Below, in pieces: positions 3,001 through 6,000 of a DNA stretch of 64,000 nucleotides (positions are counted from its first letter, which is position 1; every line of letters starts with the position of its first letter). This stretch comes from a plasmid. The stretch lies in the NCBI RefSeq assembly GCF_056746865.1, contig NZ_JBWKMP010000005.1; one strand, 5' to 3'. A program made the position numbers.

Positions 3001-6000
3001 GATACTTCACTTTCTGTCTGAATACTGATGTACCACTTACCGCAGGACTGACTGACAGTGACATTTTTCACAACGCCCGTGACCTGACGGCTGTTCCGGT
3101 AGCGCATCCAGCCAAGTTTTGGCAGAAAAATTCGGCTGCTTTCCTGATCGAGCTTAACGCCCTGCGGGTAGCGGAATGCATCATTCTGTCCCCGCTTTTT
3201 GAATCGGGGAAAAGCCGCCCGCTTCTGGAAGAAATTTTTGTAGGCCCGCTCAAGGTCTTTCAGTGACTGCTGCAATGGCTGTGATGGGGCATCTTTAAGC
3301 CATTGGGTTTCAGTGGCATTTTTCCACTCAACCAACCACGAGGCCATCCTTGGGTAAGGAATATATTTGTTCCCTGCCTCATGGTTCTCATTCTGAAGCG
3401 CCAGAGCACGATTGAAAACGAAACGACATGCGCCTGCGAAGCGCCTCATTTCTCGCTCCTGTTGACCACCGGGTCTTAACTGGAATTTAAATGCCTGTAG
3501 TCGTTTCATTCGACCATTTTAAACAAAAAAAGCCAGGTGGAAAAACTCGCCTTATATCCTCGCCCTGAAGGACGGGGTTTTACGGCGCACTGGATAATGC
3601 TGTTGGCGCTTGAGGCTTTCTGCCTCATGGCGAAAAGGTGGTTTGTATCTTGTTGTGCGGCAGAAAGAAGAAAGCCCCGTAGTTAATTTTTCATTAACCC
3701 ACGAGGCGATCCCAATGCTTGAACAACATCAGGATAGCCTCTTACCGCGCGTTACGCAAGGAGAAGAAGGCCATGAAACAGCCGAAAAACGCCCTGACCT
3801 GGTGTTTATTAATCGTGTGCTGCACATTGTTAATATTCACGTATCTGACCCGGAATCGTTTGTGCGAGGTCCGGCTGAAAGACGGAGACAGGGAGGTTAC
3901 GGCAAGTCTGGCTTACGAATCCAACGGTAAGTAGCAACCCGGAGGCGGGCGAAAGCCCGCCTTTTTGGGGATGATGTGGTTCTGGCATTAAGCGCCTTTA
4001 CAAAGGGGGTATTCTGTACGGATACCCCCTTTTTCCAAGTATTTTCAGGATATTAACTGCTGAAAATGGTATAATTAGTCAATATGACAGCAATTATTGA
4101 GGCGAGTATGCAGCCAAAAAAAACACCCGTGATTGTGGTCAAAAAACGCCGCGTTCTGGTCATGCCAGAAAATCCTGTGGTGAATGAAAAGCCGCAGGAA
4201 GTACAAAAATCAGCAGTTAATGAAAACAAGAAAGTACAGAAGAAAGATGCTGTAGCAGAGAAAACACGTAAAAAGCAGCCTCAGCCCTGGTATTTGAAAA
4301 AACAAATCACTTTTCCCCCAAAATATCCGAAAGAATATTTTGAAAAGTGTTTCAATAAAGTTCGTGCTGTTTTTCCTGAACTATGGACAGACGAAAAAAA
4401 GAACTTGCCCCTGAAAAGCGGGATTCTCCAGGACGTTGAGAAATACCTGGCGGATAACCCGGATGTGGATCTGACGATTGAAGAGTGGAATTGTGCGGTT
4501 CAGGTGATGACGTTCCGGTGGCAATATCTTCAGAATTGTACTGTACCAGGCGCAACACGTTACGACCTTTACGGGAAACCTGCTGGTACAGTAAAAAAAG
4601 CACACGCAACTTATGCGCAACTGGTTCTCGATGCCCGTAAGAAAGCCAGCGAGAAGAAACAATTAAAACGTAAGGGATAAAGCCCCGAAGGGCTTTATCA
4701 TTTCAGCCTGGCTGACTGTAGAATCCAGTGATTTTTTCCGTTTTCGTCCAGGCCGTGTTCGTAAGCTGCAAGAGCCGCTTTCATTATTGCTGTTTTTGTC
4801 TGGCCTGTTCGCAGTGCTTCCCGTTCCAGAATATCTTCGTAAACGTCCCCAAGCCGGACATTGGTCACTTTAGTTGCTCCCGATTTTTTGCGGGTAGCTT
4901 CATTGATGAATCGGGCTGTGTCTGCATTGGTTTGTTCTGTTTTTTGTCCTGGTATTACCGGAGTTTTCAAGTCAAGAGCCATTATATCACCTTTCGTGTG
5001 TTACATTAGCTTTACTGTGTAAAGTTAATGATGTAAAGCTGTCGTATTACATCCATTAGGGATTGATGCCTAACTCTTGCGCCAAAAGCTCTATTTGTGC
5101 TTTAGCTGTAGAAAGGCTGGATGCGCGACGTACATCATGAACGCCAGCGCCTTCATTACAGGCCGCTTCAAAAATATCTAAATCTGAAATACGTGTACGA
5201 AGTGGCTGTATCCACACCGGGTTCTCCCGGAGTAACTTGTCGAGATCAATCGCTGCTTTTCTGTGGCGTGGTTTTGTCGTGTTAATTCTCGTGAAAAGTA
5301 CCCAGGGTTGCAGGTCTGGATTGATCTGTTGAGCTGTGCGAACTTTTTCTGTTACATGAGTCAGCGTTTCTGCTTCGAAATCTGAAGACGGCTTAACGAG
5401 AGTAAGCAGAATGTCAGCTACAGTTAAGGCACTGCGAAATTCCTTGCTGTCATGCCCTGGACAGTCAATGATCAGCACTTCACATATTTTTTTCAGGCGC
5501 TTAATGACTTCTGATACATCGCCATACTCTTCATAAACAGGAACCGGTAATAAGCCATTCTGCTTTCTTTTTTCGTTCCAGCTAAGAATATCATTGTTTT
5601 TATCGGTCTTCAGAATGATGACCGTTCGTGAATTATTTACCAGATAAGAAGCCAGGTTTGTTGCTGTGGTGCTTTTTCCTACACCGCCTTTATCTGATGC
5701 GACAAGTAATGCTCTCCCCATAGAAACCTCGGATATACAGTGTAAAGGTTTATTTGTCTTTACATTGTATTCATTATAGTTACGTTGTAAAGATGTTTGT
5801 GTCTTTACAATGTAATTGTTTTTGTGCTTTACATTGTGTGTATGTTACCCAGTGCGCCGTAAAGCCCCGTCCTTCAGGTCGGGGATATAAGGCGCGGTTT
5901 TCCACCTAACTAGGTGTTTGCTGTTGTTCAATGTATTGGCGGATGATGGATATTGGCGCACCTCCGCAGCTACTGGCAAAATAGCTGGGACTCCATAAAA

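Follow-up and report, generated by a model that had tools for sequence, protein, structure and literature searches.

What becomes of a plasmid addiction module when an insertion sequence (IS) sits immediately in front of its toxin gene? The question is raised by a 64,000-nucleotide stretch of an IncI2 plasmid (hereafter the window), in which a first-pass annotation placed a Hok/Pnd-like type I toxin locus at 3600-3970, abutting a tnpB-only IS, and proposed that the insertion may have altered the promoter or the antisense-RNA region of the locus.

The region 3605-4034 (+ strand) can be regarded, with hardly any room for doubt on the basis of similarity, as a bona fide and complete hok/sok locus of the IncI2 backbone, akin to parB of plasmid R1. 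The Hok ORF (53 aa, ATG at 3773 to stop at 3934, + strand), a predicted small membrane toxin, matches the Pfam family HOK_GEF (PF01848; E=8.1e-17, 61 bits for a cutoff of 22), is 67% identical to R1 Hok in a protein alignment and is preceded by a purine-rich Shine-Dalgarno (SD) sequence, GGAGAAGAAGG at 3760-3770, which is the strong ribosome-binding site announced by the first-pass annotation. It is overlapped by the mok ORF (3715-3930, + strand, 71 aa, frame +1 relative to hok), which is colinear with R1 Mok, matches DUF5431 over its full length (70/70 positions, E=1.5e-42) and has its own SD, GAGG, inside CACGAGG at 3700-3706; by analogy, hok translation is predicted to be coupled to that of mok. 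The Rfam sok model (RF01794) scores 98.4 bits on the leader at 3604-3775 (gathering score 59, E=7e-22), a + strand match that we do not take as the strand of Sok, given that the model describes the sense strand of the hok leader. Besides, the alignment with R1-type parB is colinear from the -10 box and +1 through the terminator. A chance match is excluded by the Rfam sok score, the E value of Mok and the fold of the full-length hok mRNA (MFE of -158 to -178 kcal/mol, z=-4.9 versus shuffles). As for the Pnd half of the initial label, the pnd subgroup (IncI1/IncB pndA/B/C) was considered and rejected, with 37% identity to PndA versus the 67% to R1 Hok, and these similarities assign the locus to the hok/sok subgroup proper. 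In the public annotation of these plasmids, Hok is cut to 40 aa, and mok and sok are left out.

According to the parB alignment, the full-length hok mRNA would extend over 3605-4034 (+ strand, ~430 nt, 5' end GGCGCUUGAGG). In its MFE structure, the tac element that forms the 5' end (3605-3612) is paired with the fbi element (UAAGCGCC, 3989-3996), which is conserved in R1, and an RNA truncated at its 3' side (3605-3975) refolds into a local tac stem, with tac pairing with the ucb/anti-SD region around 3672-3678. Switching of tac between fbi and a local stem agrees with the R1 hok mRNA model (PMC9841398). Downstream of the toxin gene, the stem-loop GGCGGGCGAAAGCCCGCC (3944-3961), whose GC stem is conserved, is followed by T5, and the whole (3944-3966, + strand) aligns with GGCGGGCGCAGGCCCGCCTTTT of R1. 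This stem-loop is real and had already been noticed, but as a terminator; the R1 alignment identifies it as the 3' protective structure of the processed (Tr) hok mRNA, a role described for R1 Tr-hok (PMC9841398), and not as a transcription terminator. The predicted intrinsic terminator of the hok unit, AAAGGGGGTATTCTGTACGGATACCCCCTTTTT, is found at the R1 terminator position (4002-4034, + strand) with a 13-bp stem and a T-run, and both fbi and this terminator lie beyond 3970, where the locus had been thought to end.

On the minus strand, alignment of its complement with the Sok region of R1 places the Sok antisense RNA at 3660-3724, with approximate ends. It is predicted to have a 5' single-stranded tail, which is complementary to the region where mok starts, followed by a long hairpin and the U-rich UUUCUUCUUUCU. 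The sok promoter (3731-3759, minus strand; -35 TTGCGT at 3759-3754, 17-nt spacer, -10 TATCCT at 3736-3731) has the R1-type layout TTGCGC-17-TATCCT. By analogy with R1, the module would belong to the post-segregational-killing type, with killing as its predicted output. A stable hok mRNA would be held closed by tac/fbi 5'-3' pairing until slow 3' trimming opens it for translation of mok and then of hok, while unstable Sok, transcribed from a promoter of its own within the leader, would block the mok start and trigger mRNA decay. The hok mRNA is very stable, and little transcription may suffice.

The neighbouring element, IS copy 1, is a 1336-bp tnpB-only member of the IS200/IS605 family (2258-3593, minus strand). 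Its right end (RE) finishes with ...GGATGTCAA at 2258, tnpB occupies 2301-3509, and the left end (LE, 3510-3593) carries a hairpin (3558-3577) and the guide AAAA, which reads TTTT on the + strand (3578-3581). TnpB has the RuvC-like and Zn-ribbon domains typical of the family, with matches to the Pfam domains OrfB_IS605 (PF01385, 1e-32), Cas12f1-like_TNB (PF07282, 2e-24) and HTH (PF12323, 4e-14), and its gene shares 94% identity with the tnpB of copies 2 and 3, the two full-length relatives found in the window, which also encode TnpA (PF01797, E=7.6e-42), at 5909-6442 in copy 2. Copy 1 has no Y1 (HUH) TnpA, as only 84 bp separate the tnpB start from the IS end. It is therefore a non-autonomous tnpB-only derivative, whose mobilisation could occur in trans. 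It has subterminal hairpins at both LE and RE, no terminal inverted repeats and the RE terminus TCAA. In IS608, which tetranucleotide serves as cleavage site depends on the guide tetranucleotide located on the 5' side of the LE hairpin (PMC3201880). Judging from the flanks, the elements of this group follow the same rule: guide AAAA is paired with flank TTAT at 14 of 15 non-redundant sites, and guide AAAG, carried by copies 2 and 3 (target TTAC), with flank TTAC at four of six. The association is significant over the 21 non-redundant insertions (Fisher p=0.0017), a count that leaves out three metagenome matches to the LE pattern (guides CGTC, CTCG and CCGC), devoid of the IS hairpin and attributed to chance.

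IS-free IncI2 plasmids reveal what this element interrupts. Across the empty site they read ...GGTCAATAT|ATAATGCTGTTGGCGC (TTCCTGGTCAATAT|ATAATGCTG in plasmid L001), i.e. both flanks joined exactly and no target duplication, which sets the IS boundaries. The left end, initially put at 3592, is thereby moved to 3593, and the estimated distance of ~180 bp was right: the IS does abut the locus, ending 180 bp upstream of the hok ATG and 11 nt upstream of the inferred +1 (3605). From this comparison, it is nearly certain that the hok -10 box is split by the IS, with -12 on one side of the junction and -11 on the other. The alignment gives TATAAT in IS-free IncI2 plasmids and TATGAT at the equivalent place in R1; the window has the hybrid hexamer GATAAT (3593-3598, + strand), whose G(-12) is provided by the IS end and whose ATAAT is native. 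The bottom strand of ATAA (3594-3597) is the TTAT target of copy 1. The displaced upstream half of the native promoter (TTCCTGGTCAATAT at 2244-2257, + strand, with the original T(-12) at 2257) is now 1.3 kb away, and the IS left-end hairpin stands in its stead. Downstream of the junction, sok and its promoter, mok, tac, ucb, fbi, the Tr-hok stem-loop and the terminator are all intact, and the sok promoter, at least 138 bp from the junction, has the same sequence as in IS-free plasmids. The suspicion of a regulatory alteration was thus justified for the toxin promoter, the only element of the module that is damaged, and unfounded for the antisense gene and its promoter.

The same IS was found next to hok in 24 PLSDB records, five of which show the direct junction of the window. 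The 19 others (type B) contain, in this order, the IS, a 195-bp leader repeat with sok only, and the native promoter with hok; TTYCWGGTCRATAT is kept upstream of both promoter copies. NZ_MT773671.1 is an example of type B. IS-free IncI2 plasmids, such as NZ_CP043198.1, are referred to as type A. Two previously named elements were examined as possible identities of copy 1 and rejected: IS683 of pHNSHP45 belongs to the IS66 family and is inserted in the partial leader copy, and the "IS200 element before mok" described in pmcr1_IncI2 (PMC5996929) is a different IS200/IS605 element, ~500 bp further upstream.

How does the split box affect the toxin? In R1, killing is suppressed when TATGAT carries T-12C, A-11C/G or T-7C, and T-12C leaves hok untranscribed (PMC9841398). 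The R1 precedent concerns T-12C in TATGAT; the present change is T-12G in TATAAT. Since the -10 box is split and T-12C abolishes hok transcription in R1, we infer that hok is weakened or silent and that sok is intact and unaffected; by analogy with R1, functional silencing or a strong decrease of hok expression is fairly probable. According to the proposed mechanism, the TTAT-targeting tnpB-only IS entered the bottom strand of the -10 box at the -12/-11 step, and the conversion of TATAAT into GATAAT, together with the LE hairpin brought upstream, would strongly cut or abolish hok transcription. Such a drop or loss of hok transcription, with sok unaffected, has probably left the plasmid with an addiction module that is weakened or disarmed.

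We also considered, as a possible though rather unlikely situation, that the module still works, GATAAT firing at the same +1 and delivering enough stable hok mRNA for killing, in which case the IS would be neutral. Indeed, GATAAT matches the consensus at five of six positions and retains A-11 and T-7, which makes residual transcription plausible, but the T-12C change was by itself sufficient to abolish transcription in R1. In the same vein, neither upstream context (types A and B) provides the native IncI2 promoter with a good -35, suggesting a -10-driven promoter that tolerates upstream changes. Because this native promoter lacks a recognisable -35 and escapes our consensus scan, the loss of upstream DNA may matter less than assumed. 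Nevertheless, the conserved block TTYCWGGTCRATA (-13 to -26), common to both native contexts, has been lost, the spacer and -35 region now consist of the GC-rich LE hairpin, and the IS end contains no -35-like hexamer at 16-19 bp from GATAAT. Finally, the five direct-junction records retain hok, mok, sok and every RNA element in intact form, and their hok ORF shows no sign of decay, though the events are recent; plasmids of this kind persist in both E. coli and E. albertii, from several countries.

As it also misses the native hok promoter in IS-free plasmids, the consensus promoter scan cannot judge promoter loss and is of value solely for excluding a strong outward promoter in the IS. An IS end can occasionally give rise to a hybrid or outward promoter and a -10-like hexamer is recreated at this junction, but it is highly improbable that the IS supplies an outward promoter or read-through yielding a 5'-extended or over-expressed hok mRNA, given that the scan of 3400-4100 returned no + strand site and a sole match on the minus strand (TTTCCA-16-TAAAAT, 3543 to 3516) directed into tnpB, that tnpB transcription runs away from hok, that the LE hairpin and its UUUU (3558-3581) are terminator-like when read toward hok, and that a 5' extension would bury tac, which the R1 model requires at the 5' end.

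Turning to the origin of the direct junction, we consider it likely that it resulted from homologous recombination of the two type-B leader copies with each other: a crossover between the 195-bp leader repeat and the full leader would bring the IS directly against hok. The IS of the window, that of plasmid L003 and that of a type-B plasmid (L002) differ by 0-1 nt in 1336. Moreover, the direct-junction plasmids display at least four different mosaics of partial-copy and full-copy leader SNPs, which fits recurrent recombination between leader repeats; in three of them (L005, L015 and L016), the partial-copy SNPs extend to crossover points that differ. A search of PLSDB for the presumed ancestor, an IS-free plasmid with the 195-bp partial leader repeat, found none; the nearest are L004, L006, L008 and L009, with a 45-bp IS remnant and a 5'-truncated partial copy. 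There is a smaller chance that the junction reflects a primary insertion into the -10 box TTAT of a type-A plasmid. The IS subfamily prefers this target, and copy 1 could be mobilised in trans by copies 2 and 3, its relatives with tnpA, but an IS that is the same or 1 nt off occupies the same site in the same orientation in type-B plasmids, and the partial-copy SNPs of L005, L015 and L016 would be left unexplained. Because the leader allele of the window is base-for-base identical to that of type A, direct insertion is possible for this particular plasmid, which may alternatively have recombined with a type-A plasmid.

IncI2 plasmids are major carriers of mcr-1, a gene for resistance to colistin (pHNSHP45 has this backbone), and they persist in part thanks to hok/sok. 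Some of them have an IS exactly inside the toxin promoter and, if this arrangement is regenerated by recombination between leader repeats, plasmid addiction could be turned down with the toxin gene untouched. These plasmids also offer a natural case in which a one-base guide change, AAAG to AAAA, retargets an IS200/IS605 element to TTAT. As TTAT sits in consensus -10 boxes (TATAAT, on the other strand), this IS subfamily would be prone to hit promoters. A bolder view, to which we give little credence, combines the IS-killed promoter and the sok-only repeat into a recurrent recombinational OFF switch, and has TnpB cut competing IS-free IncI2 plasmids. If true, a single crossover between repeats would replace the intact hok promoter with its IS-disrupted version, and hok could be turned back on if TnpA excised the IS precisely and thereby restored TATATAATG. 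The predicted TnpB/omega-RNA guide, ATATTGACCAGGAATT, which adjoins TTAT, exactly matches the hok promoter as it reads at the empty site in IS-free IncI2 plasmids, so the IS-bearing plasmid could, in this scheme, cut its rivals at the promoter of their addiction module.

Taken together, the system is a known one and its configuration is modestly new, and nothing here changes the known workings of hok/sok or of IS200/IS605 elements. The module belongs to the same family as pnd (R483/R16) and flm/srnB (F), with a Hok/Gef toxin, an antisense RNA and a leader ORF. It shares with R1 hok/mok/sok (parB) its gene order and overlaps, with mok over hok in another frame, the sok promoter layout, the tac/fbi pairing, the Tr-hok stem-loop and the terminator; overall nucleotide identity is ~83%, and it is complete for the tac 5' end (GGCGCUUGAGGCUUUCUGCC) and for the hok SD. 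Hok itself has a one-codon insertion near the C-terminus (…ESNGK versus …ESGK in R1). The promoters also differ: R1 combines TATGAT with a TGGTCA -35 at 18 bp, whereas the native IncI2 promoter has TATAAT without that -35, and that of the window plasmid is split by the IS at -12/-11. On the IS side, the likeness is with IS608 of Helicobacter pylori: subterminal hairpins without inverted repeats or target duplication, insertion 3' of the tetranucleotide adjoining LE, the terminus TCAA 10 nt past the RE hairpin, GAAT 5' of that hairpin, and a target set by 4 nt of guide on the 5' side of the LE hairpin, as in the AAAG/TTAC pair of copies 2 and 3. In comparison with IS608, copy 1 has no tnpA, its guide is AAAA and its site TTAT, the full copies have tnpA and tnpB in divergent orientation, and 16 nt of IS sequence separate the cleavage site from the LE hairpin versus 19 nt quoted for IS608. 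An IS at the edge of a hok locus is not new in itself, as Pedersen and Gerdes reportedly described in 1999 for hokC/gef, with IS186 downstream disrupting fbi. More generally, the chromosomal hok loci of E. coli K-12 are associated with IS elements (PMC3562002). In both situations, an IS at the edge alters a regulatory element and spares the toxin ORF. However, the K-12 IS lies on the 3' side and removes fbi and normal 3' processing, whereas the present one is a tnpB-only IS200/IS605 element that lies on the 5' side, in the -10 box of the toxin promoter, and is carried by a conjugative plasmid.

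The alignment of the window with IS-free IncI2 plasmids revealed that the tnpB-only IS200/IS605 element (copy 1; 2258-3593, minus strand) is placed to the base pair inside the -10 box of a hok promoter. In such plasmids (e.g. NZ_CP043198.1), the site reads ...TTCCTGGTCAATAT|ATAATGCTGTTGGCGCTTGAGG... without interruption; in the window, its halves (2244-2257 and from 3594) are parted by the 1336-bp IS, which ends at 3593 instead of 3592 as first annotated and has no target duplication at its flanks. In a three-way alignment, the IncI2 hexamer TATAAT stands opposite the experimentally defined -10 box TATGAT of R1 parB, the reference hok/mok/sok system (the sequence used matches thousands of plasmid records at 100% identity), with G(+1) at 3605. 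This alignment puts the junction between positions -12 and -11 of the box: T(-12) has been left behind at 2257, and A(-11) lies at 3594. A hybrid hexamer GATAAT results at 3593-3598, preceded by the IS left end (LE) in place of all native DNA 5' of -12, including the TTYCWGGTCRATA block conserved in both native promoter contexts. No -35-like hexamer was found at 16-19 bp from the hybrid -10, nor any plus-strand promoter-like site in 3400-4100, and the LE hairpin is followed by UUUU in a terminator-like arrangement oriented toward hok. In R1, the suppressors of Hok killing T-12C, A-11C/G and T-7C were recovered, and the T-12C mutant yields no hok mRNA (PMC9841398). Together, the split -10 box, the lost upstream DNA and these suppressors suggest that hok transcription would be strongly reduced or lost with sok untouched, although GATAAT still has A-11 and T-7. 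The suspicion in the first-pass annotation that the insertion had altered the promoter or the antisense-RNA region holds for the hok promoter but not for sok: the sok promoter, the Sok region and the mRNA elements 3' of the junction are base-for-base the same as in IS-free IncI2 plasmids.

The hok/sok locus itself is real, and its earlier reading was essentially right. The toxin ORF (53 aa; ATG 3773 to stop 3934, plus strand), proposed as a type I toxin of the Hok family, indeed matches Pfam Hok/Gef (E=8e-17) and shares 67% identity with R1 Hok; it is preceded by the Shine-Dalgarno sequence GGAGAAGAAGG (3760-3770, plus). The overlapping mok ORF lies in another frame (3715-3930, plus) and gives a full-length match to the Mok family, DUF5431 (E=1.5e-42). 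The Rfam sok model matches 3604-3775 (98 bits versus a gathering score of 59) and is the sole Rfam family above threshold across the whole 64-kb window. The sok promoter (3759-3731, minus; TTGCGT-17 nt-TATCCT) aligns colinearly with its R1 counterpart (TTGCGC-17-TATCCT), and the predicted fold of the complement downstream of it has a long hairpin between a 5' tail and a U-rich tail, the shape expected of Sok. The inferred hok mRNA (3605-4034, plus) starts with GGCGCUUGAGG, as in R1. [quoted passage not shown] In the minimum-energy fold of this mRNA (z-score of -4.9 versus shuffles), the 5' end (3605-3612) forms the tac/fbi pairing with 3989-3996. Upon in silico trimming to 3975, the 5' end joins the ucb/anti-SD region in a local tac stem instead, and the same refolding after 3' trimming is on record for R1 (PMC9841398). 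The pnd subgroup was ruled out (37% identity of Hok to PndA). In these IncI2 plasmids, RefSeq/PGAP gives Hok as 40 aa from an internal start (3812-3934; WP_223685802.1, WP_223170659.1, WP_223202818.1) versus the conserved 53 aa from ATG 3773, and leaves mok and sok unannotated.

How the IS came to abut the full locus can be approached from its relatives. The copy-1 IS lies beside hok in 24 PLSDB records. In 19 of them (type B, e.g. NZ_MT773671.1), a diverged 195-bp hok-leader copy comes next, with sok promoter and Sok region retained and hok missing, and after this the full locus, preceded by a native TATAAT promoter. In the other five (type C), it sits directly on the full locus as in the window; a metagenome contig (L027) with the same IS/flank junction is of type B or C. 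The IS differs by 0 or 1 nt in 1336 between both types, which thus go back to a single insertion event. Type-C leaders are mosaics of partial-copy and full-copy alleles. In L005, the whole leader is of the full-copy type; in the window and L003, one indel has the partial-copy form (GGTTTG) and full-copy alleles follow; L015 has four partial-copy variants before the switch, and L016 switches even later. These differing switch points are the pattern that independent crossovers between the leader repeats would give, each of which would delete 195 bp and fuse the IS-disrupted promoter to hok. For the window plasmid only, direct insertion or recombination with an IS-free plasmid (type A) is also possible, its leader allele being that of type A. 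The presumed IS-free ancestor with a leader repeat was searched for in PLSDB and not found.

Other rearrangements are seen around the locus. pHNSHP45, pmcr1_IncI2 and other relatives carry a truncated repeat and a 45-bp IS remnant, which is a deletion product since TnpA excision is precise. In this lineage, the remnant joins the right-end (RE) tip to an LE hairpin arm at the same site (TTGACATCCTCCACGCCCTGAAGGACGGGGATATAAGGCGCACTG; L004 1539-1583, L006 2312-2356, L009 about 4363-4407). Genomes of Intestinirhabdus and Symbiopectobacterium (L013, L014) contain comparable LE-RE mini-elements of 46 bp. IS683 (IS66 family), IS150 inside sok and another IS200/IS605 element are found nearby in relatives, marking the region as an insertion hotspot; IS elements "before the mok gene" have been mentioned (PMC5996929). 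The IS150, a further independent insertion into the same module, interrupts the full hok locus of L004 (NZ_CP144929.1) at about 1836 within the Sok/leader region (…CATTAACCC|TGTACTGACCCC). Many IncI2 plasmids also have one or two extra sok-only units 5' of the real locus (L002, NZ_MT773671.1, 3589-3783; L006, L008, L009), comprising hok promoter, leader, sok promoter and Sok region without hok. Their Sok' has a G-to-C change in the 5' recognition tail relative to Sok; an extra antitoxin dose or a decoy are candidate roles.

Copy 1 codes for TnpB alone (Pfam OrfB_IS605, Cas12f1-like TNB, HTH). Its relatives, copies 2 (5849-7596) and 3 (10563-12310), are 1748 bp each with divergent Y1 tnpA and tnpB, and could mobilise it in trans (94% identity in tnpB, 90% over the left-end 63 nt). 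All three share the terminus ...GGATGTCAA and have GAAT on the 5' side of the right hairpin. On the 5' side of the left hairpin, copies 2 and 3 (inserted 3' of TTAC) have the tetranucleotide AAAG, and copy 1 (adjoining TTAT) has AAAA. In pattern scans that retrieved independent insertions from genome and metagenome collections, AAAA elements are flanked by TTAT at 14 of 15 non-redundant sites and AAAG elements by TTAC at four of six (Fisher p=0.0017). Read on the opposite strand, the consensus -10 box (ATTATA) contains TTAT, which explains an insertion exactly in the hok -10 hexamer. The flanks downstream of copies 2 and 3 are also repeated (7614-7783 versus 12316-12485; 7785-8062, 8518-8795 and 12488-12765), suggesting duplication of a backbone segment of ~4.7 kb. 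Sub-threshold Rfam matches (HgcC, 27-33 bits; RAGATH-18, 28 bits; sot0042) at 2245-2428 (minus) and 7426-7609 (plus) span the tnpB 3' end and RE, probably the TnpB omega/reRNA. The guide predicted for copy 1, ATATTGACCAGGAATT, is together with TTAT identical to the hok promoter at the empty site of IS-free IncI2 plasmids.

The window opens with IncI2 repA, and many conjugative IncI2 plasmids from E. coli, Salmonella and E. albertii share 98-99.9% identity with it over 3400-4100. The locus is therefore part of the maintenance region between repA and parA in an IncI2 backbone, a family that includes pHNSHP45, the first mcr-1 plasmid. A ProQ/FinO-family RNA-chaperone gene (4084-4680, plus; PF04352, 4e-17) directly follows the hok terminator and so adjoins an antisense-RNA-controlled module near the replicon. 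Just 5' of the native hok promoter, a conserved 53-aa ORF (2082-2243, plus), with its stop codon 14 bp from the IS right end, has a weak YdaS/HTH-like Pfam match below cutoff (E=0.005). A tandem array of ~14-19 copies of an 18-bp unit (repeat family D1) occupies 21216-21557.

The hok/sok system is well known, and many public plasmids contain this locus, though poorly annotated. The novelty is modest: it lies in the exact position of the IS in the -10 box, in the recombinational history of the junction and in the retargeting of AAAA elements to TTAT. That plasmid addiction is switched reversibly by recombination or excision, with TnpB guided to the empty site in the hok promoter of rival IncI2 plasmids, appears quite improbable. 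In mechanism, the window locus corresponds to R1 hok/sok, and it displays all of the tested defining sequence features except an intact hok promoter. In E. coli K-12, IS186 downstream of hokC/gef disrupts fbi (PMC3562002), whereas the window IS belongs to another family and lies 5', in the promoter. This IS acts like IS608, whose guide/cleavage-site rule (PMC3201880) holds for the AAAG/TTAC and AAAA/TTAT pairs of the window copies, which likewise have GAAT 5' of the right hairpin and an IS608-type terminus.
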